Assembly: GCA_038214715.1 (NCBI GenBank)
Contig: JBBQRP010000012.1
Span: 43,634-107,633, forward strand
Length of the DNA: 64,000 nucleotides
Direction: 5' to 3'
Origin: Thermoanaerobaculia bacterium
GTDB taxonomy: Bacteria; Acidobacteriota; Thermoanaerobaculia; UBA5066
The notes under the pieces are model-generated. The model ran no database searches. It was not told where the DNA came from and saw only the letters and a list, made by a program, of their open reading frames with translations. Position 1 is the first letter of the stretch. Every line of letters begins with the position of its first letter. Made by a program: the position numbers and the translations under genes. Shown piece after piece: positions 1,430 to 42,286 of the stretch.

Positions 1430-3687
<2,258 letters not shown>

Positions 3688-3883
3688 CGCTGTTCCTTTC
3701 GTTCAATCCAAACCGCGATTCTAGAACTCCTCGCGCACGTCCGAATGATGCGGACGCACTAAGACCGCCGAATCCGTTCTCCAACGGCATCGAGAGTGGC
3801 CGTAGCCCGTCCCAAGCGGGCTCTTCGCGAGCGACCTCGTGCCGCTATCCCAATGCGTGACGGAGGCGCAAACCTGAGTTAAC

Positions 3884-6081: not shown

Positions 6082-7863
6082 TCAGGGCAGGAGCGTCCGG
6101 GCGCCCGCCGCGAGAGACCGCTTCACGACGTCCACGACGCGGTCGGGGGCGATTTCCGAAGCCTTCTTCTCGCGGCGCGTCGACACTTCGACGATGCCGC
6201 GGGCGAGACCCTTTCCGCCCACGACGACGCGGAGCGGAAAGCCGATGAGGTCCATGTCCTTGAACTTCACGCCGGGACGCTCGTCGCGGTCGTCGTAGAA
6301 GACCTCGACGCCATCGGCTTTCAGGGCCTCGTAGAGCTTGTCCGCCGCCTCGAGTACGGTGGCGTCGCGCTGCAGACCCGCCACGACGCAGGCGAAAGGT
6401 GCGAGCGGCACGGGCCAGACGATTCCGACGTCGTCGTGATTCTGCTCGATCGCGGCCGCGACCGTGCGCCCGAGGCCGAGGCCGTAGCAGCCCATCGCAA
6501 GAGGCACCATCTTCTGGCTCTGGTCCGCGACCTCGCATTTCATGGCCTCGGAGTACTTCGTGCCGAGCTTGAAGATGTGCCCGACCTCGATGCCCCTCTT
6601 GATCCTCAGGACTCCGCCCTTCGCGGCCGGGGAGGGATCGCCGTCACGGGCCGTCGCGACCTCGACGACTCCGGCGAACGCCGGCCGGGTCATCACATCG
6701 CGGGGAATCGACAACTGAGCGTGATGGGTTCCATCCTGGTTGGCCCCGCACCAGATGTTCCGTCCGTTTTCCAGGGAACGATCGACGAAGAGAAGAATGG
6801 GATTTTCTTCGAAAGGAAGAAGGTCGAGCGGCCCGACGAATCCGGGCATCGTTCCTGATACGTTTCTAAGAATCTCTTCCGAAACCAGCTTCGCGTGAAA
6901 CACGTCCAGAGCCTTGGGGAGCTTGACCTCGTTGATCTCGAGATCGCCGCGGATCAGGACAGCCGCGAGCCCCTCCTTGCCATCGGCCTTTGTCCATTCG
7001 TAGACCATCGTCTTGACGATGCGCGAGGAGGTCGTCCCGAGGTGTTTCGCCTGGTCCACGCACGTCGTCAGGCCCGGTGTCGGAGCGCTCGCCTTCTGGA
7101 GCGGGCTTTCTTTCTCCCCCGCCCACGGCTCGGGGAGAGGGCCGGTCACGGCCTTCTCGACGTTCGCGCCGTAATCGCCGGCCTCCGAGAAGACGAGTGC
7201 GTCCTCGCCGGTCTCGGCCACGACCATGAACTCCTGGGACGCGGACCCGCCGATGGCGCCGGAGTCGGCGTCGACGAGCGCGTATTCGAGGTTGCAGCGC
7301 TCGAAGATTCGCCGGTACGCGGCGTCCATCTTCCGGTAATGCGCGTCCAGCCCTTTCTGGTCCACGTCGAAGGAGTAGGCGTCCTTCATGAGGAACTCGC
7401 GGCCGCGCAGGAGGCCGAAGCGCGGCCGGATCTCGTCGCGGAACTTCGTGCGGATCTGATAGAGGTTGAACGGCAGCTGGCGCCAGGAGGTGACGGACCG
7501 CCGGACCATGTCCGTCACGGCCTCTTCCGCGGTCGGCGCGAGCGCGAACTCGCCGCCCTTGCGGTCCTCGAGATGGAAGAGGATGCCTTCATCCACGTAG
7601 CGATCCCAGCGACCCGATTCCACCCACAGCTCCTTCGGCTGGAGAATCGGCAGGTCCACTTCCATGGCGCCGGTCGCGTCCATCTCCTCGCGCACGATCT
7701 CGATCATCTTGCGCAGCGAGCGGAAGCCGAAAGGAGTGAAGGAATAGATTCCCGCGGCGAGCTTCTGGATCATCCCCGCGCGATAGAGGAGCTGATGCGA
7801 GACGACCTCGGCGTCGCCGGGAACCTCGCGGAGCGTGACGAGAAACGACTGGGACCAGCGCAT
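6082..7863 (-). CDS. proS: Prolyl-tRNA synthetase (bacterial type with INS editing domain)
   Basis: MRWSQSFLVTLREVP...SHQLLYRAGMI N-terminus, class II aaRS motifs and a C-terminal anticodon-binding region. ATG at 7863; the track ORF extends to 7923. Confidence 0.9.
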   Translation of the reverse strand: MRWSQSFLVTLREVPGDAEVVSHQLLYRAGMIQKLAAGIYSFTPFGFRSLRKMIEIVREEMDATGAMEVDLPILQPKELWVESGRWDRYVDEGILFHLEDRKGGEFALAPTAEEAVTDMVRRSVTSWRQLPFNLYQIRTKFRDEIRPRFGLLRGREFLMKDAYSFDVDQKGLDAHYRKMDAAYRRIFERCNLEYALVDADSGAIGGSASQEFMVVAETGEDALVFSEAGDYGANVEKAVTGPLPEPWAGEKESPLQKASAPTPGLTTCVDQAKHLGTTSSRIVKTMVYEWTKADGKEGLAAVLIRGDLEINEVKLPKALDVFHAKLVSEEILRNVSGTMPGFVGPLDLLPFEENPILLFVDRSLENGRNIWCGANQDGTHHAQLSIPRDVMTRPAFAGVVEVATARDGDPSPAAKGGVLRIKRGIEVGHIFKLGTKYSEAMKCEVADQSQKMVPLAMGCYGLGLGRTVAAAIEQNHDDVGIVWPVPLAPFACVVAGLQRDATVLEAADKLYEALKADGVEVFYDDRDERPGVKFKDMDLIGFPLRVVVGGKGLARGIVEVSTRREKKASEIAPDRVVDVVKRSLAAGARTLLP

Positions 7864-7987
7864 GGGACCGGCGAGGATAACAGGGGTCCTCTCGGACGAG
7901 GCCCGATTCGACCGGCGCGGCATTGGTCGAGCGCCCGGCGGAATGCCCGCGATTCCAAGGGTGAAAAAATAATAGACTTGCGGCGCC

Positions 7988-9307
7988 GTGGACGTGACCA
8001 GGCTCTTTCAGACGCCCGAGAAGGCCGACGCCGGCCTGTCGTCGCTCGCCCGCGGCGTCGTCGGGTCCGAGATCCTGCGCATCGCCGGGGAAATCCGCGC
8101 GCTGCAGGCGAAGGGCCATCCCGTCTGCAATCTCACGATCGGCGACTTCGATCCACGGTACTTCCCGATCCCCAGGGCGCTTCTCGAGGGCACGCGCGCG
8201 GCCCTCGAAGCCGGCCAGACGAATTACCCTCCGGCGGAAGGGATCCTCCCCCTGCGCGAGGCGGTCGTGCGACTGTACGAGCGCGACCTCGGCCTCACCT
8301 ACCCCGTCGACTCGGTCGTGATCGCGGCGGGCGCACGTCCTCTTCTCTATGGGGCGTACCGGACGCTCGTCGACCCCGGCGACACGACGATCTATCCGGT
8401 CCCGACGTGGAACAACAATCACTACGCCTACCTTTCGGGCGCGCACGGCATCCCGGTGCCGGTCACCGCGGCGTCGAACTTCTTTCCGACGCCCGACCAG
8501 TTGAGTCCCCACCTCGCGTCCGCGCGGCTCCTCATCCTCAACTCTCCGCTGAACCCCACGGGGACCGTGATCTCGAAGGAAGCCCTCACGGCGATCACAG
8601 CGATGGTCGTCGACGAGAACCGGCGACGCGACCGCGCGGGCGGCAAGCCGCTGTACTTCGTCTACGACCAGGTCTACTGGACGCTCACGTTCGGCGCAGC
8701 CACGCACCACACGCCCGTCGAGGTCGTCCCCGAGAGCGCGCCCTACGTCATCTTTCTCGACGCGATCTCGAAGGCGTTCTGCGCGACCGGAATGCGCGTC
8801 GGCTGGGGCGTCATGCCCCCGGCGATCCGCAAGCGGATGTCCGACATCCTCGGACACGTCGGCGCCTGGGCGCCGAAGGCGGAGCAGGTTGGCGTCGCCG
8901 CTCTGCTCGACGATCCCGCCGCGGTCCACGCCCACCGCGAGAAGGTCCGCCGGGCGCTCGCCGAAAGGCTCGAGGCGCTCTATCGGGGCGTGATGGAGAT
9001 GAAGGCCGAAGGCTTCCCCGTCGACGCGATCGAGCCGCAGGGAGCGATCTATCTCTCCGCGCGCTTCGATCTCTGTGGCCGGACCATCCAGGGAACGCCG
9101 GTGAAGACGAACGACGACGTGCGGCGCCTCCTCCTCGGCGCTGGGCTCGGCGTCGTACCGTTCCAGGCGTTCGGACTCTCCGGCGACACGGGCTGGTTCC
9201 GGCTCTCGGTCGGGGCCGTCTCCACGGCGGACATCGCCGAAGCGTTTCCCCGCCTGCGCGCGCTTCTCGCTCCAGCCACCGCGATAGGGTTCTCGGCCAA
9301 CCCCTGA
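7988..9307 (+). CDS. PLP-dependent aminotransferase, class I/II (aspartate aminotransferase family)
   Basis: Fold-type I aminotransferase similarity with the PLP-lysine motif (DAISKAFCATGMRVGW). GTG start. Confidence 0.8.
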   Translation: MDVTRLFQTPEKADAGLSSLARGVVGSEILRIAGEIRALQAKGHPVCNLTIGDFDPRYFPIPRALLEGTRAALEAGQTNYPPAEGILPLREAVVRLYERDLGLTYPVDSVVIAAGARPLLYGAYRTLVDPGDTTIYPVPTWNNNHYAYLSGAHGIPVPVTAASNFFPTPDQLSPHLASARLLILNSPLNPTGTVISKEALTAITAMVVDENRRRDRAGGKPLYFVYDQVYWTLTFGAATHHTPVEVVPESAPYVIFLDAISKAFCATGMRVGWGVMPPAIRKRMSDILGHVGAWAPKAEQVGVAALLDDPAAVHAHREKVRRALAERLEALYRGVMEMKAEGFPVDAIEPQGAIYLSARFDLCGRTIQGTPVKTNDDVRRLLLGAGLGVVPFQAFGLSGDTGWFRLSVGAVSTADIAEAFPRLRALLAPATAIGFSANP

Positions 9308-9330
9308 ACCGCGGCGCTACACTTCCTGAC

Positions 9331-9993
9331 GTGAAGCAGGACAAGCGGACGGAGAAGAGCCGTGCGGCGATCCTCGAGGCATCGCTGGAACTGTTCTCGA
9401 GCCACGGGTACCGCGGCACGAGCATCCGCGAGATCGCCGAGGCTGCCGGCGTCTCGACCGGCAACGTCTACCACCACTTTCCCGACAAGGAGGCGATCTT
9501 CCAGACCGTCCTCGGACAATACTGGCAGGCGATCGAGAGCCCCGATTTTCCGTTCAACAGGGCGCTCGCGTCCGGCACGTTCCCCGACAACCTCGAGGAG
9601 CTCGCCGTCGCGGCCCGCGAGAGCGTGCGCCTCTGGCGACGCCACGTGGCGCTGATCTACGTCGACGTCGTCGAGCTCTCCGGGAATCACATCCGGAAGT
9701 TCTACTCGGAAATGGCGTCGCGCTTCGAACGATTCATCGTCACGCACGGCGAAGCGGTCTCCGGAGAGATCCGGCCCGGTGTCCCGGTTGCGACCGCGGT
9801 CATGCTCGCGAGCCGCGTCTTCCTGCAGTACTACGCCGTCGAGATCCTCTTCGGCGTCCCCCAGCAGTTCGGGAAGAACAGCGGCCTCGTCGTGGGAGAG
9901 ATCGCCGAGATCCTCCGCCACGGAATGCTCCGTGAGGACGCGGCGGCGGTTACGTCCGGCGGCCCGCGGCCCCTCGCCCGCGCCCGCCGTTAG
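9331..9993 (+). CDS. TetR family transcriptional regulator
   Basis: N-terminal TetR HTH (RAAILEASLELFSSHGYRGTSIREIAEAAGVSTGNVYHHF). GTG start 24 nt after the aminotransferase stop. The longer track ORF 6895..9993 is rejected upstream of this point. Confidence 0.78.
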   Translation: MKQDKRTEKSRAAILEASLELFSSHGYRGTSIREIAEAAGVSTGNVYHHFPDKEAIFQTVLGQYWQAIESPDFPFNRALASGTFPDNLEELAVAARESVRLWRRHVALIYVDVVELSGNHIRKFYSEMASRFERFIVTHGEAVSGEIRPGVPVATAVMLASRVFLQYYAVEILFGVPQQFGKNSGLVVGEIAEILRHGMLREDAAAVTSGGPRPLARARR

Positions 9994-10007: not shown

Positions 10008-12398
10008 CTACGCAGGCCCAGCGCCGCGCCCGACCCGCGAGAGGAATCGTTCCACGAGGAGCACGAACTCGTCCTCGCGCTCGACGATGAGGGCATGGCC
10101 CGAGTCCGGCACGACGACGAAGTCCGCCCCCGGGATCGCATCCGCGACGGCCTTCGTCCTCTCGAGGGGCATCGCTGCGTCGAGGCTCGCAGCCAGGACG
10201 AGAACGGGGCAGGAAATTCCCGGGAGAACGGACCTCAGGTCGACCTTCGCGAGCGCCGCGAGCAGATCCCGTAGCCCCGTGAACCATCCGGCCGGGAGCA
10301 GACCGACCTGCGCCCTTCGGGATGCGATCTCTTCCGCGTGCGCGGCCTGCCATTCGGGCCGGTACGCGAGCTGAACGATCGCGTCATAGACCTCCAGGCG
10401 ATCGCCTCCGTTCGCGGCGGCGCGCACGGCCTTCGCGAGTCTCTCACCCGCGCCGCCGGGCTTCCCGTCCGCGACGTCCGTCACCGTCGCCGCGACCAGG
10501 GACCTCACGCGCGTGGGGTGCCGGGCCGCGACAAGGAGCCCCACGTATGCCCCGTAAGAGGCCGCGACGACGTCGACGCATCTTTCGCCCAGCCCGTCGA
10601 GGAGCGCCGCGACGTCGTCCGCGTGCTCTTCCATGGAAGCGCGCGCGCCGGGGGAATGCAGCTGGCCCCGAAAATCGCAGCGGAGAACGCGGTGGGTGCG
10701 TGCGAAGCGCCGGGCGATCGGCTCCCACGCCGCCATCGACATCATGCCGCCGTTCAGGAGCAGCAGCGGCGAGCCTTCCCCGTCCACGCGGTGGGCGAGA
10801 ACACCGGAGAGAGGAGGAGGAGAAGAAGAAGGCGAAAATGAGTTTTTTGGATCGGAAGAGGAATGATATGCAGCTCTGAGGTCACCCTTGACGACCTTCC
10901 CGTAGGGCGTTCGCGGCAGGCTTTCGACGAAGACGAATTCCCGGGGGATCTTGTACCGAGCGAGGCGCGCCGAAACGAACTCGGCAAGCTCGGCCGCTGC
11001 CCCCGCGGGCCGCCCCTCTTCAACCTTCGAAGAATTCCTCTCTTCTCTTTCTTCTTCCCTCCGAACGACGAACGCGACGCTGGCCTCTCCCCACTTCTCA
11101 TCCGGGACGCCGACGACCGCGACGTCCTTCACGTCCGGGTGCTGGAAGAGCACGGCCTCGATCTCGGCCGGGTAGACGTTGACACCGCCCGAGATGAACA
11201 TGTCCTTCTTCCGGCCCGCGATCGTGAAGAAGCCGTCGGCGTCCTTCTTCGCGAGGTCGCCGGTGTGGAACCAGCTCCCGGAATCGAGCGCCGCCGCGGT
11301 CGCTTCCGGATTCCGGTAATAGCCCTGGCAGACGTGAGGCCCCTTGAGGAGGAGCTCCCCGACCTCGCCCGTCGCGACCTCGCGGCCCGCCTCGTCCGTC
11401 AGCCTCGCCTCCGTGAACATCATCGGCCGGCCGATCGAGCCGGCTTTCCGTATGGAATCCTCGAGGCTCATCGCGAAGCAGTTCACGCCGACCTCCGTGA
11501 GGCCGTAGCCCTGCTTGAAACTCGCACCGCGCGCGTGCCACGTCTCGATGATGTCCATCGGGAGCGGGGCGCCCCCGCTGATGAAGTAGCGGACGCTCGA
11601 GAAGTCGGCGGTCGGAAACGCGGGATGTTCCTGGAGCATCCGGAAGATCGTGGGGACGCCGAGCACGACCGTGCAGCGCTCCTTCGCGATCGACCCGAGA
11701 AGCCCGGCGGCGTCGAAACCAGGGTGGAGGACGATCGTCCCGCCGATCGCCAAAATCGGAGTCAGGAAGGCCGCGAGACCGCCCGCGTGGTAGAGAGGAG
11801 TGTAGATGGGGGAGACGTCGTCTTCGCGCAGCTGCCACGAAACGACCGTATTCACCGCGTTCCACGCGACCATCCGGTGCGGCACCATCACGCCCTTCGG
11901 CTTGCCGGTCGTGCCGGAGGTGTAGAGCAGGCCGTAAAGGTCCTCTGGTTTCGGAGAAGAGGAAAGAGAAGAGAAGATTTCTTCGAAGGTCGAAGAATAG
12001 AGTTCGTCGAGAACCGCGCCGGAGACTCCTCTTACCCTTCTCAGCAAATCTCTTCCGATCTCCTCGAATCCTGCGCCGTAAATCAGGGCTTTCGGTTCCG
12101 CGTCCTGGATCACGGCCTCGAGCTCCCCTGCCGTCAGTCGCGTGCTGAGCGGGACGAAGACGACCCCCGTCTTCCCGCACGCGAAAAAGATGTCGAGGAA
12201 CTCCACGCAGTTGCCCGCGAGAAGCGCGACCCGGTCGCCCTTTTTCAACCCGAGACCTTCGGTGAGCCAGCGGGCCGCGTCTCGCGCCCTGGAGTCGAGG
12301 TCCGCATATGTGAAGCGCCGACTCGTCGCGGCCTCGACGAGCGCGAGCTTCTCCGGCGACAAGCGCGCCCTTTCACCGAGGACGTCTCCGGAGATCAC
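10008..12398 (-). CDS. AMP-dependent synthetase/ligase (acyl-CoA-synthetase-like) fused to a C-terminal alpha/beta-hydrolase domain
   Basis: Adenylation motifs YTSGTTGKPKGV, GYGLTE, WFHTGDLA and GRKKDMFISGG. After an S/P-rich linker (SFSPSSSPPPLS) there is an alpha/beta-hydrolase fold with an AASYG nucleophile elbow and a DSGH His motif. The GTG start at 12398 forms a GTGA overlap with the upstream hydrolase stop; the track ORF extends to 12488. Confidence 0.8.
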   Translation of the reverse strand: MISGDVLGERARLSPEKLALVEAATSRRFTYADLDSRARDAARWLTEGLGLKKGDRVALLAGNCVEFLDIFFACGKTGVVFVPLSTRLTAGELEAVIQDAEPKALIYGAGFEEIGRDLLRRVRGVSGAVLDELYSSTFEEIFSSLSSSPKPEDLYGLLYTSGTTGKPKGVMVPHRMVAWNAVNTVVSWQLREDDVSPIYTPLYHAGGLAAFLTPILAIGGTIVLHPGFDAAGLLGSIAKERCTVVLGVPTIFRMLQEHPAFPTADFSSVRYFISGGAPLPMDIIETWHARGASFKQGYGLTEVGVNCFAMSLEDSIRKAGSIGRPMMFTEARLTDEAGREVATGEVGELLLKGPHVCQGYYRNPEATAAALDSGSWFHTGDLAKKDADGFFTIAGRKKDMFISGGVNVYPAEIEAVLFQHPDVKDVAVVGVPDEKWGEASVAFVVRREEEREERNSSKVEEGRPAGAAAELAEFVSARLARYKIPREFVFVESLPRTPYGKVVKGDLRAAYHSSSDPKNSFSPSSSPPPLSGVLAHRVDGEGSPLLLLNGGMMSMAAWEPIARRFARTHRVLRCDFRGQLHSPGARASMEEHADDVAALLDGLGERCVDVVAASYGAYVGLLVAARHPTRVRSLVAATVTDVADGKPGGAGERLAKAVRAAANGGDRLEVYDAIVQLAYRPEWQAAHAEEIASRRAQVGLLPAGWFTGLRDLLAALAKVDLRSVLPGISCPVLVLAASLDAAMPLERTKAVADAIPGADFVVVPDSGHALIVEREDEFVLLVERFLSRVGRGAGPA

Positions 12399-13342
12399 GG
12401 CTTTCCGGCCGGAGGCGTCGAGATCGTCGGCGCCGGAAGCGGGTTTTTGAGGATCTTCAAGAGGGCTTCCGCGAAGCGGTCGGGGCATTCCACCTGCGGC
12501 ACGTGGCCGCAGCGCTCGATCGTCGTGAGACGCGCGGCGGGAAGCTGCGCCGCGAGGCGCTTCGCGTAGTCGACGGAAAGGAGCTTGTCCGAGGCTCCCC
12601 AGAGGAGGTCCACCGGAATGTCGAAGCCGCCGAGCTTTCCGTCGAGAAGGTATGCGGGCATGCTCTTCCCTTCCGCCGCGATGCGCGCGATCGGGCCCGT
12701 CGCCGTCGTGCGGATCACGTCGTCGATGACGAAATTCGGGATGATCGGCGCGGAGGGATCGCGAAGGGCCTCAAACGTCCGGTCCGCTTCCGCACGGGTT
12801 TTCGGCTGCAGCGTGATGTCGAACCGGTCTCCGAGGAGCGGGCCGCCGTTCACGAGCACGAGGTGGTCGACGCGGTCCGGATGTTCCCGCGCCCAGACCG
12901 TCGCGACCCATGCGCCGAGAGAGTTTCCGACGAGAGTCACCCTGCCTGCCGGCAGCGTCTTCATGGCGCCGTCGAAGCCCGCGAGAAGCGTCGCGAAGGA
13001 AATCGGGCCGGAGGCGGGCGCGCTCTCACCGTGCCCTGCGAGGTCCACGGCGACCACCGAGAAGCTCTTCGAGACCAGGGGCGCGATCTTCGCCCAACCG
13101 CCCGCCTGGTCTCCCGCTCCGTGGAGGAGGACGACGGGGGCGCCGCCGCCGCCGGAGAAGACGCACTGCGGGCCCGCGGACGACGGCAGGACGTGTCTCT
13201 CGAAACCCGACGACGAGAGCTTTCGGCGGGAAAGCCACGCGAGGGTCGCGAGGGGACGCGTTCGGAAGACGAGCCCGGCGGCCGCCCCGAGGAGGAAAAG
13301 GATGGCGACGAGAACGAGAGCGATCTTCGCGGCGCTCGGCAT
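12395..13342 (-). CDS. Alpha/beta hydrolase with N-terminal membrane anchor
   Basis: N-terminal TM helix, HGAGDQ oxyanion region, GNSLG nucleophile elbow and C-terminal GHVPQ. Confidence 0.8.
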   Translation of the reverse strand: MPSAAKIALVLVAILFLLGAAAGLVFRTRPLATLAWLSRRKLSSSGFERHVLPSSAGPQCVFSGGGGAPVVLLHGAGDQAGGWAKIAPLVSKSFSVVAVDLAGHGESAPASGPISFATLLAGFDGAMKTLPAGRVTLVGNSLGAWVATVWAREHPDRVDHLVLVNGGPLLGDRFDITLQPKTRAEADRTFEALRDPSAPIIPNFVIDDVIRTTATGPIARIAAEGKSMPAYLLDGKLGGFDIPVDLLWGASDKLLSVDYAKRLAAQLPAARLTTIERCGHVPQVECPDRFAEALLKILKNPLPAPTISTPPAGKP

Positions 13343-13355
13343 GGATTCCCCGAGA

Positions 13356-14351
13356 CTAGACCATGCGGAAGGCCGCGCCGGCCATGTTGTAGCCCACTCC
13401 GGACGCGACGAGAACCACCAGGTCGCCCGTTCGAGCCTTTCCCTGGGAACGCGCGTCGTCGAGCGCCATCGCGACGCTCGCCGAGCCGGTGTAGCCCCAC
13501 TTCTCCATCACGAGATGGGTCTTCTCCATCGAGAGGCCAAGGTCTTTCATCACGATCTCGATCGTGGGCTTGCGCACCTGCGACAGGATCAGCATGTCGA
13601 TCTCCGCGACCGCGAACCCGCCGTCGAGGGCCATCTGCCGCACGAGCTTCGGCCACCCCTCGTTGTTGAGCTCGGGCGGATAGCGCTCGTTGAGCTTGAC
13701 GGACGTGCGGCCCGCCTTCACGGACTCGATCGAAGCCGGCTCGTCGGTACCCCCCGACAGGATCGCCCAGTTCCGGTTGTACGCGCCGTCCGCGCGGAAC
13801 CCGGACGAGACGAACCCGGGCACGTCCGACGGCTCGAGGACGGCGGCGCCCGCGCCGTCGCCGAAGAAGAAGATCATGGGGTCGTTCGGGTCCGTGAGCT
13901 TATGCATCATGTACGCGCCGATCGCGACGACCGTCTTGAGGGACTTGTTCGTCGCGATGAGGCCTGCGGCGGTCGCGAGACACGTCGGGAAGGATGCGCA
14001 GGCGCAACCCACGTCGAACGTTCCGGCGTTCTTCGCGCGGAGCTTGTGCTGGACGACGACCGATGTCGCCGGCGTGACGAAGTCCGGCGAGTCCGTACCG
14101 AGGAGGATGAGGTCGACGTCCTCGGGCCTCTTCCCGGCAGCGTCGAGGGCCTTGCGCGCGGCGCGGACGGCGAGATCGGAGGTCGCCCAGTCGGAAGGCG
14201 CCCACCAGCGCGTCAGGATCCCGCTCGCGGCCTCCATCTTGTCCACGAATTCCGGCGCGATCGACCGGAAGCGCTCGCGAAGGGCGTCGTTCGAGACTTC
14301 GATCTCCGGCACGTACGAGCCGGTTGCGACGATCCGGGCCGAGCGGGTCAT
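13356..14351 (-). CDS. KAS III (FabH)-like protein with a degenerate catalytic triad (Cys retained, His/Asn replaced)
   Basis: Collinear with E. coli FabH. The FDVGCACASF motif is present (Cys aligned with C112). The HQAN region reads SQVR and GNTSAAS reads GYTGSAS. Its ATG overlaps the upstream SDR stop (ATGA). Confidence 0.85.
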   Translation of the reverse strand: MTRSARIVATGSYVPEIEVSNDALRERFRSIAPEFVDKMEAASGILTRWWAPSDWATSDLAVRAARKALDAAGKRPEDVDLILLGTDSPDFVTPATSVVVQHKLRAKNAGTFDVGCACASFPTCLATAAGLIATNKSLKTVVAIGAYMMHKLTDPNDPMIFFFGDGAGAAVLEPSDVPGFVSSGFRADGAYNRNWAILSGGTDEPASIESVKAGRTSVKLNERYPPELNNEGWPKLVRQMALDGGFAVAEIDMLILSQVRKPTIEIVMKDLGLSMEKTHLVMEKWGYTGSASVAMALDDARSQGKARTGDLVVLVASGVGYNMAGAAFRMV

Positions 14352-15112
14352 GTGCCGAGCACCAGACCACCGTCCACGGAGAGCGTGGCGCCGTGGACGA
14401 AGGACGCCGCGTCCGACGCGAGCCAGAAGTACGCCTCCGCGATGTCCTCGGGCCTGCCCATCCGGCCGACCGGCGTTTTTGCAACCATCCCGAGAACCAC
14501 CTTTTCGGGCATGGCCTTGAGAATCTCCGTCGCGATGAAACCCGGGGCGACCGCGTTCACCCGGATGCCAAACTTCCCGAGCTCCCGCGCCCAGGTCTGC
14601 GTAAAGGAGATGACACCCGCCTTCGTGGCTGCGTAGTTCGTCTGGCCGAAGTTACCGTAGAGACCGACGACCGAGGACGCGTTCAGGACGACGCCGCTCC
14701 CCTGCCCGATCATCGCGGGAGCGACGGCGCGGGTGCAGTTGAAGACCCCCCTGAGGTTCACGGCGACGACGCGGTCGAAGTCGGCGTCCGACATCGTCGA
14801 GACGACGGCGCCGTCCTTCCACTTCACGAGCTGGGAGTCCCTGACGATCCCGGCGTTGTTCACGAGGATGTCGATCCGGGAGAAACGCGTGAGGACGTCC
14901 GCCACGGCGGCTTCGACAGCGGCCGCCTCCGTGACGTCCACGCGGCGACCCTCCGCCTCGGGCGCGCCCGCGGCGGCGAGGTCGGCCGCCACGGCGGCGG
15001 CGCCCTTCTCGTCCACGTCCCAGACGGAAACGGCGCACCCGTCCCGGGCGAACCGGAGGGCCGTCGCGCGGCCGATTCCGGCCGCGCCCCCCGTCACGAT
15101 CGCGACGCGCAT
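14348..15112 (-). CDS. Short-chain dehydrogenase/reductase (FabG-like 3-oxoacyl reductase)
   Basis: TGGAAGIGRAT Rossmann motif, NNAG and an S...YAATK catalytic set. ATG at 15112 lies 2 nt after the TonB-dependent receptor stop. The track ORF 14348..17869 is rejected upstream of this. Confidence 0.85.
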   Translation of the reverse strand: MRVAIVTGGAAGIGRATALRFARDGCAVSVWDVDEKGAAAVAADLAAAGAPEAEGRRVDVTEAAAVEAAVADVLTRFSRIDILVNNAGIVRDSQLVKWKDGAVVSTMSDADFDRVVAVNLRGVFNCTRAVAPAMIGQGSGVVLNASSVVGLYGNFGQTNYAATKAGVISFTQTWARELGKFGIRVNAVAPGFIATEILKAMPEKVVLGMVAKTPVGRMGRPEDIAEAYFWLASDAASFVHGATLSVDGGLVLGT

Positions 15113-15114
15113 GG

Positions 15115-17904
15115 TCAGAACGTCAGCCGGAGGCCCAGCTGGACTTCGCGCGGCGCCAGCGTCGCGCTCGCGTTCCCGAAATTCGAATTCGGCCGGAGCG
15201 CGGCGGCCGGATTGGCGATCGTCGGGCCAGCGAGATTCTGCGCGCCATCGATCGTCGACACGTCGTAGTTCACCGTGTTGAAGAGGTTGAAGGCCTCGGC
15301 GATCACCTCGACACCCACGCCCTGGAAGGCGAGCGTCTTCGTGATCCGGAGGTTCATGTTGCTGTAGCGCGGTCCGTCCATCCCGAAGCGGTCGACGCCC
15401 GGGGCCCGGTCGCCCGTCTTGCCGTCGCCGTTGAAGTCGTAGCCGAGGCGCTGCGTCCAGGGCTGTCCCGCGCCGTACTCGAACACGGGCGCCACGGCGA
15501 TCTGGAACGGGAGCCGGAAGACTCCGGAGAGGACGAAACGGTACTTCTCGGCCGAGCGCCCGCGTCCGTACTCGGCCTCCATGTTCGCGGGATCGCTCGG
15601 ATAGCCGGTCGGAAACTCGGGGCTGAAGTCGTCGGCGATGTTCTTTTTGCTCGCGAACGTGACGGAGGCCGTGACGAGGTGGCCACCCTTGATGTTGCCG
15701 TTCAGGCTGAGGACGAGGGCCTTGTACTCGGAGCGCCCGTCGTTCGTGTACATGTTGACCTGGTCGTACGTCGTGATCGGGCGGAGGTGAGTCGCGTTTC
15801 CGCTCCAGTTGATGTCGCGGATGACGATCTCGTCGCGGCCCTTGTTGTAGACCCCCTCGACGTCGGCGAAGAGGCCCGTCTGGCCCAGCCGTGCGGTGAA
15901 GCCGAGTGTCGCCTGGGTGGACTGAGGCGCTTTCAGGTCCGGCCCGAGGAGCGCGATCGCGGGCTTGCTGGGAATGCCGGTCGTCGTCGGGTGGGCCGGG
16001 TCGAGCGTGAGCGCCGGGATGCCGAAAAGCGCCCCGTTCAGGCGCGTAAACGTCACGCGGCCACCGACCTCGCCGTTCTGCTGGAGCTCGGAGAAGAGTG
16101 GCACGAGAAGGTAGCGGCCCGTGAAGATCCCGACGCCACCCCGCGCGACGTACTGGCCGGCTCCCGTGACGTCGTACGAGAAGCCGAGGCGCGGCTGGAA
16201 GTTCGTCGTGTCCACCTTGCGCCCGTTCGGGACGAGGGAGTGGTGGAAGTCGGGATCGTTCGCGTTCAGGTCCACGTCGTAACGCAGGCCGAGCGTGACC
16301 GAGAGCCGCGACGTCGGCTTCCATTCGTCCTGGAGGAAGCCCGCGAGCCGCGTCGTGTTCGCCTTGACGTCCGCCGAGCCAACGCCATACGCGTAGGCGA
16401 GGGGGAGCGCTTTCGTGTCGGTCAGCCACAGGAAGAGCCCGTTCTGGTAAGTGTCGATGCGCGACCGGTCCACGACGCGCTGGACGCCCGCGCCCGCTTT
16501 CACGTCGTGCGAGCCCGACCCGCCCGAAAGGTGGACGTTGATCGTGTCGCGCAGTTCCCACTGGTCGCCTTCGCCGAGGAGGTCGCCGAGGATGTTCGGC
16601 CCCGTCTGCAGCGTGTTTCCGCTGGAGAACCAGTCCGCGGGTACGCCGGTCGTGTTCGTCGGCTCGAAGTACTTCCGGCTGCCGTACTGCCCGCGAAGCT
16701 CGTTCACGGCCGTCGGCGAGAGCGTTGCCGTGTCGCCGAGGGTGACGTTCCAGTTGTCCCGCTGGAGCTCCTGCCCGTACGAGATGTCCGCGACGCCGCC
16801 CACCCGGAAGTTGTTCTCGCGGTAGCGGTCGTACTCGATCTTCGCGGTGAGCTGGTTCGAGCTCGAGAAGGAGTGGTCCACGCTTCCGAAGCCGAGGCTC
16901 TGGTGGAAAGGATGAGAGACGTCCGTGGCCCGGGACACGAACGCTCCCTGGGGCCGGAACAGGATGGGAGTCGTGGAGTTGATCTGCTCGAACGACGCGA
17001 AAAAGTGCGTGAAGTCCTTTACGATCGGGCCGCCGAGCGTGAATCCAAACTGGTTCCGCTGGTAGTCGACCGACGTGTCCTGCTCGCGCGCGCCCTTCGC
17101 GCGGAGCGACGCGCCCCGGTAAAAGCCGAAAGCCGACCCCGCGAGCGTGTTCGTTCCGGACTTCGTGACGACGTTGATGGCGCCGCCCGACGAGCCACCG
17201 ACCTCCGCGTCGAACCGGTTCGAGATCACCCGGAACTCGCTGATCGCGTCCTGCGAGAACTTCGCCTTCGCGAGTCCGAGCGCCGGATCGGTGAAGTCCA
17301 CGCCGTCCACGAGAATCGTCGACTGGCTCGCGTTGCCACCTCCGCCGACGACGGGCCCTCCCGTGATGAAGCGGAAGGCCCCGCGCTCGCGCTCGACGCC
17401 CGGCGTGATGAACGCGAGGTTCTGGAAGTCGCGGTCCGGGGTCGGGAGATCCTTGATCTGCTCGGGCGTGATGTTCGTCGACGAGTCGCTCTTGAAGACG
17501 TCCACGAGCGGCACCGACGCGACGACGTTCACGCTCTCCGATCTCTGGCCCTGCAGCGTCGCGCTGATCTTTCCGCTCTGCCCGACGAGGAGGACGACGC
17601 CCTTCCGTTCGACCGGCGCGAAGCCGGAGAGCGTCACGGTCACGTCGTACGCTCCGGGCGGCAGCGCAGCGAAGGACGCCGTTCCGGCGCTTCCGGTGGT
17701 GCTCGTCCGCGAGAATCCCGTGTCGGGCCGCCTCACGCCGACCGTGGCTCCGGGCATCGGGCCACCCGAGCCGTCCAAGGCCACGACGTCGAGCGAGGCC
17801 GTCGCCGTCTGCGCGGCGGCCGGGAGGGACGCGAACGTCAGAGCCAATACAGCGGCGAGCGCGATCCACCCGTTAGGTTTCGCGAGTCTCCTGCGAGTCA
17901 CCAT
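15115..17904 (-). CDS. TonB-dependent outer-membrane receptor with N-terminal carboxypeptidase-regulatory-like domain
   Basis: Signal peptide, CarbopepD_reg-like beta-sandwich (AYDVTVTLSGFAPVERKGV), plug domain (ILVDGVDFTD, GGAINVVTKSG), a long beta-barrel and a C-terminal aromatic residue (LRLTF). AGGAGG RBS 6 nt upstream. Confidence 0.85.
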   Translation of the reverse strand: MVTRRRLAKPNGWIALAAVLALTFASLPAAAQTATASLDVVALDGSGGPMPGATVGVRRPDTGFSRTSTTGSAGTASFAALPPGAYDVTVTLSGFAPVERKGVVLLVGQSGKISATLQGQRSESVNVVASVPLVDVFKSDSSTNITPEQIKDLPTPDRDFQNLAFITPGVERERGAFRFITGGPVVGGGGNASQSTILVDGVDFTDPALGLAKAKFSQDAISEFRVISNRFDAEVGGSSGGAINVVTKSGTNTLAGSAFGFYRGASLRAKGAREQDTSVDYQRNQFGFTLGGPIVKDFTHFFASFEQINSTTPILFRPQGAFVSRATDVSHPFHQSLGFGSVDHSFSSSNQLTAKIEYDRYRENNFRVGGVADISYGQELQRDNWNVTLGDTATLSPTAVNELRGQYGSRKYFEPTNTTGVPADWFSSGNTLQTGPNILGDLLGEGDQWELRDTINVHLSGGSGSHDVKAGAGVQRVVDRSRIDTYQNGLFLWLTDTKALPLAYAYGVGSADVKANTTRLAGFLQDEWKPTSRLSVTLGLRYDVDLNANDPDFHHSLVPNGRKVDTTNFQPRLGFSYDVTGAGQYVARGGVGIFTGRYLLVPLFSELQQNGEVGGRVTFTRLNGALFGIPALTLDPAHPTTTGIPSKPAIALLGPDLKAPQSTQATLGFTARLGQTGLFADVEGVYNKGRDEIVIRDINWSGNATHLRPITTYDQVNMYTNDGRSEYKALVLSLNGNIKGGHLVTASVTFASKKNIADDFSPEFPTGYPSDPANMEAEYGRGRSAEKYRFVLSGVFRLPFQIAVAPVFEYGAGQPWTQRLGYDFNGDGKTGDRAPGVDRFGMDGPRYSNMNLRITKTLAFQGVGVEVIAEAFNLFNTVNYDVSTIDGAQNLAGPTIANPAAALRPNSNFGNASATLAPREVQLGLRLTF

Positions 17905-18039: not shown

Positions 18040-19902
18040 TCAGCGCCGGTCGCGCGTCCGCGAGCGCCCGCGATTCGCGAGCTTTTCCGTGAGCTGGAGG
18101 TTCCGGCGAATCTGCTCGAGCATCTTCGCCTCGAGCCCGCGCCCGGCGGAGACCCGCGTGTCCCGCCTCTTCGCGCGGCCGAAGGCCTGCCGCGCGGCGC
18201 GTGCGTCCCCGAGCGCGAGGTACGCCAGGCCGAGATGGGTCAGGCCGGTAGGCGTCTCGCCCAGGTCCGTCGCGCGGCGCAGACATTCGACCGCGCGGTC
18301 GTATTCGCGGCGCTTGTAGTGGACCCAGCCCTTGGCGGCGAGCGGGAACTGACGCATCTCCTTCGGTGAGAGCTTGAGCGAGAGGTCCGCGAGCTCGAGG
18401 GCCGCGTCGAGGTCCTCGCCCATCTCCGCGAGCGTGGAAGCGCGCTGGAAATACGCGATCGAACGCGCGTAATTCGACTTCACGACGCCGAGCATCTCCT
18501 CGGCGACGCGGCTTCCCTCCCGGAACTTTCCCTCGGCCTTCAGCGCTTCGAGCAGCGTCGTGTAGGCGGCGGCCGCCACCATTTCGCCGGGAGCCCGGGA
18601 AAGCACGCGGCGCGTCGTCGCGACCGCCTCCGACGTTCGCCCCACGGCCGAGCACAGAAGCGCATAGGCAATCAGAAGCGTCGGGTTCTCCGGGTCCAGC
18701 TTCAGGGCCCGCCGGTAGAGCGCCATCGCCTTGCCGGGATCGCGCACCGCGGCAGCCTCGGCCTTCCGCGCGAGGACCGCGGCCTCGCCCGCGACCTTCG
18801 GGAGGGCCCGCGCGCCCGAGGGTGCAAGGAGCTTCGAGGCCTCCTGATATTCGATGCGGTTCGGGTTCAGCTCGAGGGCGGACTGGAACCTCTCGGCGGC
18901 CTTCTGCGTCCATCCGCGATCGAGATAGCAGAGCCCGAGCTGGTAGAGCGCGTCCTCGTCGTCGGGATCGAGGCGGGACGCCTTCTGGAATGCCTCGGTC
19001 GCCTCGGTGAGGCGGCCGCGCTCGTACGCGATCGTCCCGAGGAGCGAATAGGCCTGCGCGTTCTCGTCGATCGCAACGGCTTTCTTGAGGAACGTCTCCG
19101 CGCGCGCGAGCTGTCCCTTCAGCGCGAAGAGCGCGCCGAGCGTGAAGTATGGAAGGAACGCGTCGGGCTTGATCGCCACGGCCTCCTTGAGGACCTCGAG
19201 CGCACGGTCCGTGCGGCCCGCCTCGTTTTCGAGGACACCCGTGTACACGAGAGCGTCGAAGTGCTTCGGTTCCTTCGCGAGGACCGCGCGCAGCATCGTG
19301 GCGGCACGGTCGGTTTCCCCTTCGTTGAAATACGTCTCGCCGAGGAAGAACGCGAGATCAGCGTTTCGCTTGTCGAGCCGGTAAGCCTCCTCGAGGACCT
19401 TCACGGCCTTGTCCGGATCGAGCGCATAGAACGCGAATTCGGCGTCGGAGAGGAGACCCTTGAAGCGCTCCCGCCGCTCGCCCGAAAATCCGCCGAGCAC
19501 GCGTTCCTTTCTCTCGAGGAAGCGCTCGCGCTTCTCCATCGCGGTCATGTGGTGGTCGACCCGTGTCTCCCAGAGATCGAGGAGCTCCTCCTCGACGAGA
19601 AGGCCCTTCCTCTCGAGCAGGTCCTTGAGCGCGAGGAGTCCCGTCTGTGCGACGAAACCGTTCTTCTCCTGCCGGTTGAGCGCTTCGAGCAGCATCTTGA
19701 GCGTCTCGGCGCTGCGCTTGACGATTTCCTCGAGGACGCTGACTCTCTCGAGGAGGTGCTCGTCCATCGAGACGCCTTCTTCCTGCTGAGTCGCCTCCTC
19801 GTACGCGTCGGTCGCGCCCGACACGACGAGGAGCTTGCTCTGGCACTTGACGCAGTATTCCCGGTCGAGCTCGTTCGACGCCCCGCAGACCTGACAGATC
19901 AC
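18040..19902 (-). CDS. Zinc-ribbon plus multi-TPR repeat protein (cytoplasmic, hypothetical)
   Basis: N-terminal C4 motif (CQVCG...CVKCQ) followed by about 10 TPR-like repeats. The GTG start at 19902 forms a GTGA overlap with the hbd stop. A 70-nt-overlapping ATG at 19968 is the alternative. Confidence 0.65.
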
Positions 19903-20774
19903 GAGAGCTTCTCGCCTCCGGGCCCGTCGTACCGGTAGAACCCCCTCCCCGCCTTCCGCCCGTGCCATCCCGCGTCCACCATCTGGACGAGGAGCGGGCA
20001 GGGGCGGTACTTGTCGTCCCCGAGCCCGCCGTGCAGGACCCTCAGGATCGCGAGACACGTGTCGAGCCCGATGAAATCCGCGAGCGTGAGGGGCCCCATC
20101 GGGTGATTCATGCCGAGCTTCATGATGCCGTCCACCGCGTCGGGCGTCGCGACGCCTTCGTAGACGGCGAAGAATGCTTCGTTCAGCATGGGCAGCAGGA
20201 TGCGGTTCGAGACGAACCCGGGGAAGTCGCGGCACAAAAGTGGCGTCTTCCCCATCTCTTTCGCGAGCGCGAGGACGACCTCCGTCGTCTCGTCCGAGGT
20301 TGCGATTCCGCGGATCACCTCGACGAGGGCCATCACGGGAACGGGATTCATGAAGTGCATGCCGATGAAACGGTCAGGCCTCGTCGTCCGCGCGGCGAGC
20401 CTCGTGATCGAGATGGACGACGTGTTCGTCGCGAGGATCGTGTGCGGCGGGGCGAGGGCGTCGAGCCTGGCGAACAGGTCCTTCTTGACGGCCTCGTTCT
20501 CGAGGATCGCTTCGACGACGAGGCCTGCCTCCGCGAGGCGGCCGAGGTCCGCCGTCGCCGTCACGCGCCGCAGCGCGGCGTCCCGGTCGCCGGGCGTGAC
20601 ACGCCCCTTGTCCACCTGCCGCGCCAGGTTCTTCTCGATCGTGGCGAGGCCGCGTCCCGCGAGATCGGGCGTCACGTCGACGAGCACGACCCTCTTGCCC
20701 GCGAGTGCGGCGACGTGCGCGATGCCCGCTCCCATCTGTCCGGCGCCCACCACGCCGATCGTTGCCGGTGTCAT
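19899..20774 (-). CDS. 3-hydroxyacyl-CoA / 3-hydroxybutyryl-CoA dehydrogenase
   Basis: [17 protein letters not shown]-binding motif and a C-terminal 3HCDH domain. ATG at 20774; the track ORF extends to 20915. Confidence 0.85.
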
Positions 20775-20827
20775 CGGGATTTCGTCTCCTTCGCGCGGCC
20801 GCCTTTCGGCCGCTCGACGCGAGCCTA

Positions 20828-32633: not shown

Positions 32634-32643
32634 CGGTCGATTT

Positions 32644-37516: not shown

Positions 37517-37529
37517 GGAAGTCACCTCG

Positions 37530-41034: not shown

Positions 41035-41120
41035 GCTTCCTCCCCCGGACGACACGACATCTCCCGTGTCCTTCGAGTTCCTCGAGCCCATCAGCATCGT
41101 CGTCATGGACATCCCTTCGG

Positions 41121-42283: not shown

Positions 42284-42286
42284 GGC

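Follow-up and report, generated by a model that had tools for sequence, protein, structure and literature searches.

What might a FabH-like protein be doing in its operon if it has kept the active-site cysteine of the catalytic triad and lost the histidine and the asparagine? We considered this question for a 331-aa open reading frame that runs from ATG to TAG and fills exactly its interval on the minus strand (Table 1) of the window, as we call the whole 64-kb stretch of DNA analysed here. A preliminary description had read the product as a FabH paralogue with a non-canonical role, possibly that of an acyltransferase or of a PqsB-type partner.

Active-site residues of the FabH-like protein

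The protein matches the Pfam families ACP_syn_III (7e-16) and ACP_syn_III_C (5e-21), the N- and C-terminal domains of the KAS III (FabH) thiolase fold, and its fold is that of a canonical KAS III. The motifs FDVGCACASF, SQVRK and GYTGSAS, which the preliminary description had picked out, are all found in the translation. In HMMER alignments with three solved FabHs (4ryb, 4dfe and 4ylt), the Cys motif is in register, 'lsqvrk' lies opposite 'phqan(r/i/l)', and 'wgyt' lies opposite 'hgnt'. A profile-profile comparison by hhalign of the clade described below with 72 Cys-His-Asn FabHs plus E. coli FabH (probability 100%, 316 columns) bears out the collinearity with E. coli FabH and equates C118 with Cys112, S257 with His244 and Y287 with Asn274, with no gap near either replaced motif. 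The retention of the Cys and the loss of the His and Asn were thereby confirmed, and no shifted His or Asn that restores the triad appeared in a proper alignment. Asn229, which is invariant, is at most a possible relocated substitute; it lies opposite E. coli Ala216 in the hhalign comparison, although MAFFT alignments disagree in that segment. His279, considered as a relocated His, is not conserved across the clade. A pseudogene or sequencing error was also set aside, the reading frame being intact and the residue pattern conserved.

In FabH-type enzymes, His244 and Asn274 are needed for decarboxylation, and both are dispensable for formation of the acyl-enzyme (PMC4807248). Could the protein nevertheless be a genuine FabH that starts fatty-acid synthesis (FAS) with an unusual active site? 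Its fold and best matches are those of FabH, accB and accC are encoded in the window, so that the organism makes malonyl-CoA, and no second fabH was found within the 64 kb analysed of the 125.6-kb contig. However, both residues required for decarboxylation are replaced, and the protein stays below every curated NCBIfam FabH cutoff (PRK09352 / TIGR00747, 194.6 bits against 249 and 167.4 against 292.1). The ACP-docking Arg249 of E. coli FabH is also lost, the position being Pro in 120/120 close homologues and Ser, Asn or Gln in a second subfamily. In the loci examined, a fab cluster never surrounds the gene (fabD, acpP and fabF are absent from the window and from 85 loci, L001-L085), and members of the clade are found in an archaeon, Thermofilum, that to our knowledge has no ACP-based FAS. 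We regard a genuine FabH as extremely improbable.

Conservation and distribution of the Cys-Thr-Tyr clade

The substitutions are neither chance nor a sequencing artefact: all of the 120 closest homologues (67-100% identity) have the Cys and the Tyr (120/120 each), and 119 carry Thr where FabH has its His. The relatives thus share the Tyr of this protein but not its Ser, which occurs in this protein only; the family consensus is Cys-Thr-Tyr, and Ser257, encoded by TCG where relatives have ACG, is a conservative change private to this protein. In the second subfamily, 118 of 119 members are Cys-Thr-Tyr and Thr/Ser plus Tyr is fixed in 119/119, and when the clade is clustered at 50% identity the pattern is seen in every cluster, including those as distant as 30% identity. 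Cys-Thr-Tyr proteins form a single clade apart from the Cys-His-Asn FabHs, and this monophyly persists when the triad columns are masked. The substitution is not private decay. The clade motifs TD(T/S)PD, FDV(N/G)xaCA, (F)(T/S)Q(V/I)(N/R), GYTGS(A)(C/S) and SG(V/G/A)G are all present in the protein studied here. A genome scan with the close-family alignment found a clade member in at least 553 species genomes, of which the best 80 are almost all labelled Acidobacteriota; because of this choice of query, the 80 loci cover close relatives only. Members were also found in a number of further bacterial phyla and, as noted, in Thermofilum. Full-text searches found no literature on a Cys-Thr-Tyr KAS III or its operon, and the clade is large and uncharacterised.

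The clade departs from FabH at further positions. Where FabH/KAS III enzymes (the family of E. coli 1hnj, with 2ebd of A. aeolicus, BioZ 6kue and PqsD 3h76) carry His244 and Asn274, it has Thr/Ser and Tyr; in addition, Asn247 is replaced by Arg/Asn, Phe304 by Ser, Thr81 by Asp, Arg151 by Pro and Phe87 by Ser/Thr, and the entrance segment 207-220 is rebuilt (RYPPE..N...WP) with a 7-residue insertion. A second, clade-specific Cys at the position of E. coli S279 is a candidate acid/base, but it is Ser in the subclade to which our protein belongs.

The loss of two of the three triad residues might also mark a non-catalytic structural or regulatory partner, a PqsB-like pseudoenzyme that serves, for example, as a scaffold for the adjacent SDR or for an SCP2-type thiolase. 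KAS III/HMGCS-fold partners of SCP2-type thiolases occur in solved complexes (6esq, 5m3k and 9vbo), and roughly half of the loci from the genome scan, nearly all of them labelled Acidobacteriota, have such a thiolase adjoining the gene. Against this, the Cys is invariant in every member examined (120 + 119 homologues and all representatives of the clade), the replacement residues are fixed rather than drifting, conservation across acidobacterial classes is very high (65-89% identity), and most modules have no thiolase partner. PqsB, an obligate partner, lacks all three triad residues (PMC4807248), and no adjacent catalytic KAS III paralogue with which to form a heterodimer was found: the window and most loci hold a single KAS gene, with tandem copies of identical type in L013 and L016 only. 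A pseudoenzyme is therefore very improbable, and the PqsB-type reading of the preliminary description did not survive.

PqsBC as a whole offers a likeness, in that it is FabH-like, has an incomplete triad, is acylated at its Cys by acyl-CoA, as would be predicted here, and does not use malonyl-ACP (PMC4807248). PqsC loses only the Asn (Val299) and keeps His269, which is essential for turnover (PMC4807248), whereas our clade keeps the Cys, has hydroxyl residues in place of both His and Asn, and is normally encoded by a single gene. The similarity to PqsC is weak (1.8e-8), and no catalytic His is retained, the position being Ser/Thr.

Operon and gene neighbourhoods

The operon begins with the TonB-dependent-receptor-like gene, which stops 2 nt short of the SDR gene; the stop of the SDR gene overlaps the start of the KAS gene (ATGA), suggesting translational coupling. 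The SDR matches Pfam adh_short and, below the cutoff, NCBIfam FabG (2e-77); its best PDB match is 4nbw (1e-92), it also matches the (3R)-hydroxyacyl-CoA dehydrogenase 2et6 (2e-56), and it is closest to FabG, PhaB and (3R)-hydroxyacyl-CoA dehydrogenases. Because an acidic residue follows strand beta-2 (VWDVD), we read it as probably preferring NAD(H). The first alpha/beta-hydrolase, ABH1, carries a hydrophobic anchor at its N-terminus and the serine motif GNSLG, and its best PDB match (3e-20, residues 11-293) is 6i8w, which is PlaF, a membrane-bound phospholipase A1 (PMC9132575). In the fusion gene, which matches Pfam AMP-binding (9e-92) and Abhydrolase_1, the longest reading frame begins at 12488, and the start is likely GTG 12398, giving a 4-nt overlap with the ABH1 stop. 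Its ligase domain matches 8weu/8wev/FadD13 (1e-103 to 4e-97) and is nearest to fatty-acyl and feruloyl-CoA synthetases; its hydrolase domain matches the esterases 4uhc and 4q3l, has PcaD as its best NCBIfam family (6e-32), and is putatively carboxylesterase/enol-lactonase-like. The TetR gene is convergent with the end of the operon, and its product matches through the DNA-binding domain only, with no substrate indicated.

Table 1. Positions of the operon genes, the adjoining regulator and the three active-site codons in the window
Feature	Coordinates	Strand	Evidence
TonB-dependent-receptor-like outer-membrane protein (CarboxypepD_reg + OMP_b-brl_4)	15115..17904	-	Domain matches
FabG-like classical SDR, ~254 aa	14348..15112	-	Pfam adh_short, NCBIfam FabG, PDB matches
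KAS III (FabH)-fold protein, Cys-Thr/Ser-Tyr clade, 331 aa	13356..14351 (read 14351..13356)	-	Pfam, alignments, homologues
Cys118 codon	14000..13998	-	
Ser257 codon	13583..13581	-	
Tyr287 codon	13493..13491	-	
Alpha/beta-hydrolase 1 (ABH1), PlaF-like, 315 aa	12395..13342	-	Pfam Abhydrolase_1/6, PDB 6i8w
AMP-binding acyl-CoA synthetase + C-terminal alpha/beta-hydrolase 2 fusion	10008..12398	-	Pfam, PDB, NCBIfam
TetR-family regulator	9331..9993	+	TetR_N 2e-18

How constant is this company? Across the 80 loci (the best of at least 553 genomes), the recurrent neighbours are limited to the SDR, KAS, alpha/beta-hydrolases (about two per locus), AMP-ligase, TonB-dependent receptor and TetR regulator, and this set stays together through rearrangements. 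In the 62 long loci, which are nearly all labelled Acidobacteriota, an SDR (62-87% identical) adjoins the KAS gene in 57, a TonB-dependent-receptor-like gene is present in 49, a TetR gene in 46, and a separate SCP2-type thiolase in 28. We also compared nine modules of more distant clade members (30-50% identity to our protein), which come from seven bacterial phyla, from Pyrinomonadaceae as a second acidobacterial lineage, and from an archaeon; in 9/9 no thiolase-superfamily member other than the KAS-like gene is present. In every locus examined, an acid-activating enzyme, either a FadD13-like ligase or a CoA-transferase, accompanies the KAS gene; usually there are PcaD/PlaF-like alpha/beta-hydrolases as well, together with a regulator, a FabG-like SDR and a transporter for uptake. 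This gene set, combined with importers (ABC systems with binding proteins, SSF or MFS, in place of the TonB-dependent receptor of our operon), was found again in Thermofilum, Caldisericia, Anaerolineales, Calditrichaeota, Bdellovibrionales and Pyrinomonadaceae. Minimal pairs are found in Spirochaetia (ligase and KAS, adjoining ACAD/ETF) and Saprospiraceae (CoA-transferase and KAS); in these two groups and in Pyrinomonadaceae, where a MaoC (R)-hydratase takes the place of the SDR, the KAS gene is kept without an SDR.

Among NCBIfam families, the PcaD enol-lactonase ranks first or close to first (6e-32 to 1e-42) for the seven cytoplasmic hydrolases tested; an identity as PHA depolymerases was rejected, since the NF050089 hits are weak, at 52-85 bits where the cutoff is 300, and come after PcaD. 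The binding protein of the Anaerolineales module matches only unannotated or aromatic-acid-type binding proteins of R. palustris, none of which names a substrate. A role in phospholipid re-acylation (the Lands cycle), prompted by the PlaF-like hydrolase, was set aside because that member is absent outside acidobacterial-type modules while the rest of the module persists.

The clustering of a KAS III-fold protein with an SDR, an AMP-ligase-family enzyme and an alpha/beta-hydrolase recalls OleABCD, and the protein might accordingly be an OleA, with the hydrolase, AMP-ligase and SDR taking the parts of OleB, OleC and OleD, respectively, in making a beta-lactone or olefin from activated fatty acids. 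The same four superfamilies are clustered, fusion or tight adjacency of ligase and hydrolase recurs, as in the OleBC fusions of Actinobacteria, and OleA is among the structural and sequence matches; like OleA, our enzyme would use CoA thioesters without decarboxylation. But OleA retains the His/Asn pair plus a Glu base, and our protein has neither His nor Asn; OleA proteins are not its closest neighbours in sequence or structure, and the similarity is weak (1e-15) and mostly confined to the C-terminal 80 residues. OleD is a 3-beta-HSD-type extended SDR, whereas the SDR here is of the classical FabG type, and the ligase finds its nearest matches among fatty-acyl and feruloyl-CoA synthetases. 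Embedded importers (binding-protein ABC, SSF and TonB receptors) and repressors, and CoA-transferases in place of the ligase, would also be ill-suited to beta-lactone synthesis. We consider an Ole-like pathway quite improbable. As far as the aligned residues can tell, the protein belongs to none of the known PqsB-, PqsC-, OleA- and FabH-type classes.

Proposed function of the module

The functional interpretation in the preliminary description thus stands in part: its PqsB-type class fails on the residues, but a non-canonical role outside FAS is very likely, and we expect it, with the same high confidence, to be a Cys-acyl-enzyme role within a catabolic CoA-thioester module. Because the family sits in nutrient-uptake operons with a ligase, esterases and a dehydrogenase, the KAS-like protein most likely breaks down imported acids or esters. 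As the best explanation as a whole, we tentatively propose an active, non-decarboxylating KAS III-fold enzyme that carries out the retro-Claisen step of a catabolic uptake module; thiolytic C-C cleavage specifically is put forward a little more guardedly still.

In this proposal, the imported compound would most likely be a carboxylic acid of the 3-oxo or (R)-3-hydroxy type, or else the ester or lactone of such an acid, and it would enter through the TonB-dependent receptor here and through ABC, SSF or MFS importers elsewhere. The PlaF-like and PcaD-like alpha/beta-hydrolases would free the acid, and the CoA thioester would be formed by the FadD13-like ligase, which in our operon is joined to one of the hydrolases and in whose place some phyla have a CoA-transferase. 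The coupled FabG-type SDR would then convert (R)-3-hydroxyacyl-CoA into 3-oxoacyl-CoA. A preprint on archaeal FAS, in which no KAS III is involved, documents archaeal SDRs of the FabG type that act on (R)-3-hydroxyacyl-CoA (bioRxiv 10.1101/2024.07.05.601840). Cys118 would attack the 3-oxo thioester, forming an acyl-S-enzyme and releasing acetyl-CoA, and the acyl group would be handed to CoA. This would be a thiolase-type retro-Claisen reaction, analogous to that of PcaF or AtoB after PcaD/PcaIJ or AtoDA; in PcaD-PcaIJ-PcaF and AtoDAEB, a lactonase or esterase, CoA activation and a thiolase-superfamily enzyme likewise follow one another, together with a transporter and a repressor, and the analogy is functional only. 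The hydroxyls of Ser/Thr257 and Tyr287 might act as hydrogen-bond donors and a proton shuttle in place of His/Asn. Such a Thr/Tyr oxyanion hole is an argument from chemical plausibility: we know of no characterised C-C-forming or C-C-cleaving enzyme of the thiolase superfamily that lacks a His or the Asn/His pair for enolate stabilisation. In the 28/62 loci with their own SCP2-type thiolase, a thiolase role of the KAS-like enzyme would be partly redundant. The modules without an SDR count against this explanation, as does the Ser that our protein's own subclade has in place of the second Cys, the candidate acid/base.

The main rival is an acyl-transferase that works between O-esters and CoA thioesters without C-C chemistry. 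Either the Cys would be acylated by acyl-CoA and the acyl group passed to a hydroxyl acceptor, or an internal ester (e.g., of an oligo-(R)-3-hydroxyalkanoyl-CoA) would be thiolysed and its acyl group transferred to CoA, with Tyr287 as general acid/base for the alcohol. The loss of the enolate-stabilising His/Asn suits O-acyl better than C-C chemistry. Acylation of the Cys is independent of both residues (PMC4807248), and the most invariant set in the modules is ligase or CoA-transferase, KAS and hydrolase, with SDR, MaoC and thiolase varying. KAS III-fold O-acyltransferases, in which a non-condensing acyl-enzyme serves a hydroxyl acceptor, are also among the matched structures (CerJ 3s3l and ChlB3 7eqi); this class shares the fold of our protein and is much less similar to it, and no close relationship was found. 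We consider an acyl-transferase unlikely, and still the strongest competitor of the retro-Claisen enzyme.

If the catabolic reading is true, thousands of database entries named 'ketoacyl-ACP synthase III' would be mis-annotated; among them is a single entry from each of at least 553 species-level genomes, and of these genomes the 80 best are almost all Acidobacteriota. Such proteins would instead mark a carbon-acquisition module, which would bear on the metabolism of this abundant and poorly cultured soil phylum. A conserved Cys-Thr-Tyr site on a FabH scaffold would widen the known chemistry of the thiolase superfamily, and the clade would offer a clean natural experiment on what His and Asn contribute. 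With fixed operon partners (ligase, esterases, SDR and binding proteins) at hand, the question lends itself directly to in vitro tests. It is possible, though rather doubtful, that Bacteria and Archaea share a so far unrecognised catabolic route for imported 3-oxo or (R)-3-hydroxy acids and their esters or lactones, with this enzyme as its signature catalyst. The enzyme would then be a degradative thiolase, the first to be built on a KAS III scaffold, or else an energy-conserving enzyme that thiolyses esters to CoA thioesters, and the route would be widespread in Acidobacteriota.

A KAS III fold in which conserved hydroxyl residues replace His and Asn

The ORF of the KAS-like protein (the query) is intact, runs from ATG to TAG over 331 codons and encodes both Pfam KAS III domains. 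Its product had been described by eye as collinear with E. coli FabH, with the active-site Cys kept and the His and Asn lost, and this was borne out by two kinds of alignment. In HMMER alignments to solved FabHs (top match 4ryb, 6.6e-44), Cys118 falls on the catalytic Cys, 'LSQVRK' is paired with 'PHQAN.' and 'WGYT' with 'HGNT'. A profile of the query's clade, Cys-Thr-Tyr at the positions of Cys112, His244 and Asn274 of E. coli FabH, was also aligned with one built from 72 Cys-His-Asn FabHs and E. coli FabH. The two profiles matched with a probability of 100% over 316 columns, both motifs were free of nearby gaps, and C118, S257 and Y287 were equated with Cys112, His244 and Asn274; the sole indel nearby was a 7-residue insertion ahead of the rebuilt 207-220 segment.

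The proposal to look for the substitutions in relatives was followed. In the 120 database proteins nearest to the query (67-100% identity), Cys and Tyr are invariant (120/120 each), and the His244 position holds Thr in 119 and Ser in the query only, a single-base difference (TCG versus ACG; codon 13581-13583, minus strand). In a wider search of 1.84 billion cluster representatives, full-length matches to ~30% identity are Cys-Thr-Tyr, with one Cys-Asn-Tyr; the remaining full-length matches are nearly all Cys-His-Asn. A handful differ from this at one residue (CHH, SHN, CSN), and there are also some matches that are chimeric or fragmentary. The pattern switches sharply between the two types, and masking the three triad columns leaves the Cys-Thr-Tyr sequences monophyletic in a neighbour-joining tree. 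Of 119 proteins in a second subfamily (35-48% identity to the query), all but one are Cys-Thr-Tyr; the exception is Cys-Ser-Tyr. The active-site substitutions are a family trait, not decay, and a pseudoenzyme is unlikely. The family has a KAS III fold, an invariant nucleophile position and fixed hydroxyl residues replacing His and Asn.

Clade-specific positions are T81D, H244T, N274Y, F304S, S279C and L269M (E. coli numbering), together with a rebuilt entrance segment, RYPPE..N...WP. Phe87 of FabH is replaced by Ser/Thr, Arg249 by Pro or Ser and Arg151 by Pro; in FabH the two arginines are ACP- and CoA-contact residues, and ACP-contact residues have been lost in the clade. In the query's subclade (at least 76% identity), Ser occupies the position (codon 13476-13478, minus strand) of a further, clade-specific Cys (GYTGSAC), which is thus not essential for this lineage.

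The operon and its counterparts in other genomes

The minus-strand operon is tightly packed, from the OMP through the SDR, the KAS-like gene and hydrolase 1 to the fusion gene. The closest solved relative of the SDR is 4nbw (1e-92), whose PDB neighbours 4nbt-4nbv are NADH-dependent FabGs; other matches are a (3R)-hydroxyacyl-CoA dehydrogenase (2et6, 2e-56) and PhaB-type acetoacetyl-CoA reductases. Hydrolase 1 matches 6i8w (3e-20), in an alignment running from the N-terminal helix onward; this structure is PlaF, a membrane-bound phospholipase A1 (PMC9132575). The ligase is closest to fatty-acyl and feruloyl-CoA synthetases (8weu/8wev, FadD13), and the fused hydrolase resembles short-chain carboxylesterases and PcaD. 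In other phyla, ligase and hydrolase are encoded by two neighbouring genes that overlap by 4 nt, and the pair occurs twice in an Anaerolineales locus (L089), which suggests that acyl-CoA synthetase and alpha/beta-hydrolase form a functional couple.

Features of the window
Feature	Position	Strand	Remark
TonB-dependent-receptor-like OMP	17904..15115	-	first in operon order
FabG-like SDR	15112..14348	-	start 2 nt after OMP stop
KAS-like gene	14351..13356	-	start overlaps SDR stop in ATGA
Hydrolase 1	13342..12395	-	N-terminal anchor
Acyl-CoA-synthetase/hydrolase fusion	about 12398..10008	-	ORF 10008-12488, 826 aa; likely 796 aa from GTG 12398; hydrolase C-terminal
TetR gene	9331..9993	+	convergent with operon
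TPR-repeat protein, 3-hydroxybutyryl-CoA dehydrogenase	18040-20915	-	directly upstream of operon
accC (biotin carboxylase), accB (biotin carboxyl carrier protein)	31263-33135	-	adjoining
Type IV pilus genes	38134-42946	-	PilQ secretin with AMIN domain, PilO, PilN
Malic enzyme fused to phosphate acetyltransferase-like domain	1430-3790	-	MaeB-type, 786 aa
Protein with three IPT/TIG domains	34922-37540	-	872 aa
525-aa ORF	52257-53834	+	coding-like composition, no Pfam match

The upstream dehydrogenase scores over its NCBIfam cutoff (PRK05808, 425.6 bits), and its pairing with the TPR gene is kept only in the closest relatives (L001, L006-L011). No homologues of fabH, fabD, acpP or fabF were found elsewhere in the 64-kb window. 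Since accC and accB are present, the organism makes malonyl-CoA; it presumably runs type II fatty-acid synthesis with the initiating KAS encoded elsewhere.

Neighbourhoods were compared in two ways: the window's proteins were searched by tblastn against the 85 loci fetched, and all ORFs of the 62 long loci were clustered. The only recurrent neighbours, counted in the long loci, were SDR (57/62), KAS (53/62), hydrolases (53/62, 99 copies), AMP-ligase (52/62), TonB receptor (49/62), TetR (46/62) and SCP2-type thiolase (28/62). The set persists while its order varies, for example SDR-ligase-hydrolase-KAS or a divergent ligase-hydrolase / KAS-SDR-thiolase. Among distant members, Thermofilum has SDR, ligase, two hydrolases and a binding-protein ABC importer, with KAS within the transporter genes; Caldisericia, hydrolase-hydrolase-KAS-SDR-ABC importer-TetR-butyryl-CoA:acetate-type CoA-transferase; Anaerolineales, KAS-ligase-hydrolase-SDR-ligase-hydrolase-ABC importer; Calditrichaeota, MarR-hydrolase-SSF symporter-ligase-SDR-KAS-TonB receptor; Bdellovibrionales, hydrolase-hydrolase-SDR / KAS-ligase; Pyrinomonadaceae, TetR-TonB receptor-hydrolase-KAS-ligase-hydrolase-MaoC-MFS; Spirochaetia, ligase-KAS, adjoining ACAD/ETF; and Saprospiraceae, CoA-transferase-KAS. 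The partners are orthologous across domains: the Thermofilum ligase is 37% identical to the ligase of the window, and the Caldisericia SDR 51% identical to the SDR of the window. The PcaD enol-lactonase family is the best or near-best NCBIfam match for 7/7 cytoplasmic hydrolases tested. The KAS-like gene is obligatorily associated with an acid-activating enzyme; importers, hydrolases of the esterase/lactonase-like kind and either an (R)-type 3-oxo/3-hydroxyacyl SDR or a MaoC hydratase are frequent companions. In the Pyrinomonadaceae locus (L093:12271-12678) the SDR is replaced by a MaoC-type (R)-specific hydratase together with an MFS transporter, which hints at (R)-3-hydroxyacyl-CoA as a pathway intermediate.

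Two loci (L013 and L016, about 7800-9990) carry the Cys-Thr-Tyr gene in tandem duplicate, both copies ~69-70% identical to the query. Another (L038:1505-4847) has, a short way upstream of the main module, a second, divergent one of hydrolase, KAS III-like and AMP-ligase genes. The KAS-like protein encoded there (26% identity) retains the Cys; its residue at the Asn274 position is His, and Leu-His is found near the His244 position. It seems to represent a further non-canonical KAS III type that is linked to ligase and hydrolase.

Candidate reactions

What might this enzyme do? In FabH-type enzymes, acylation of the Cys proceeds unaided by the His, and His and Asn drive decarboxylation of the second substrate (PMC4807248). 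We infer that a CoA thioester acylates the Cys of the KAS-like protein, giving an acyl-S-Cys intermediate, and that the protein is unable to use malonyl units. FabG-type SDRs use (R)-3-hydroxyacyl-CoA in ACP-free archaeal metabolism (bioRxiv 10.1101/2024.07.05.601840). In the proposed order, hydrolase, ligase or CoA-transferase, and SDR would precede the KAS-like protein, the sole thiolase-superfamily enzyme of the series, accompanied by a transporter and a repressor; no second thiolase-superfamily gene was found in nine modules of more distant clade members. Because this operon logic mirrors PcaD-PcaIJ-PcaF and AtoDAEB, the reaction that we tentatively rank first is thiolase-type cleavage of 3-oxoacyl-CoA, in which the Thr/Ser and Tyr hydroxyls would act as oxyanion and proton-shuttle residues. 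This reading is weakened in that we know of no precedent in the thiolase superfamily for enolate chemistry without His or an Asn/His pair, that 28 of the 62 long loci from the genome scan, nearly all of them labelled Acidobacteriota, also carry an SCP2-type thiolase, and that modules without SDR exist. The main rival, ester-to-thioester acyl transfer, is somewhat less likely; it fits the chemistry of the active-site residues at least as well as thiolase-type cleavage does, and accounts for KAS, ligase and hydrolase being the trio that varies least.

Relation to known families and distribution

A true FabH is unlikely: the query shares the scaffold, but lacks the defining triad and the genomic context and lies under all curated NCBIfam FabH cutoffs (top, PRK09352, 194.6 bits versus 249). 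PqsB is defined by loss of all three residues and PqsC keeps the His, so that the query fits neither, and a PqsB-type non-catalytic partner, one of the options in the preliminary description, is unlikely. OleA retains His/Asn, the closest neighbours of the query are not OleA, and an Ole-like biosynthetic role is likewise unlikely; CerJ and ChlB3 are distant. Our literature search brought up no account of a Cys-Thr-Tyr KAS III, nor of this operon; an earlier description is possible, a review of KAS III homologues lying outside the search.

The window is chromosomal, Thermoanaerobaculia-like DNA with housekeeping genes (proS, gdh, accBC, relA, secDF, tgt, pilNOQ), and its nearest relatives are Thermoanaerobaculia MAGs. 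In a genome scan, the close family occurred in at least 553 species-level genomes, and nearly all of the best 80 carry the label Acidobacteriota (Thermoanaerobaculia, Holophagae, Vicinamibacterales, Terriglobia, Sulfomarinibacteraceae). More distantly related ones are assigned to Caldisericia, Anaerolineales, Saprospiraceae, Spirochaetia, Calditrichaeota, Bdellovibrionales, KSB1 and Pyrinomonadaceae, and cultured archaea with members are Thermofilum adornatum and T. pendens; Infirmifilum also carries members. What emerges is a family of KAS III-fold enzymes, predicted to be non-decarboxylating, whose active site is distinct and conserved and whose genes belong to a conserved, probably catabolic module; the function itself we infer. 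Given how widely it is spread, over at least 553 species genomes and into several bacterial phyla as well as Archaea, a fixed Cys-Thr-Tyr site should be notable to specialists in the thiolase superfamily, and the defined partner set makes this enzyme family directly testable.
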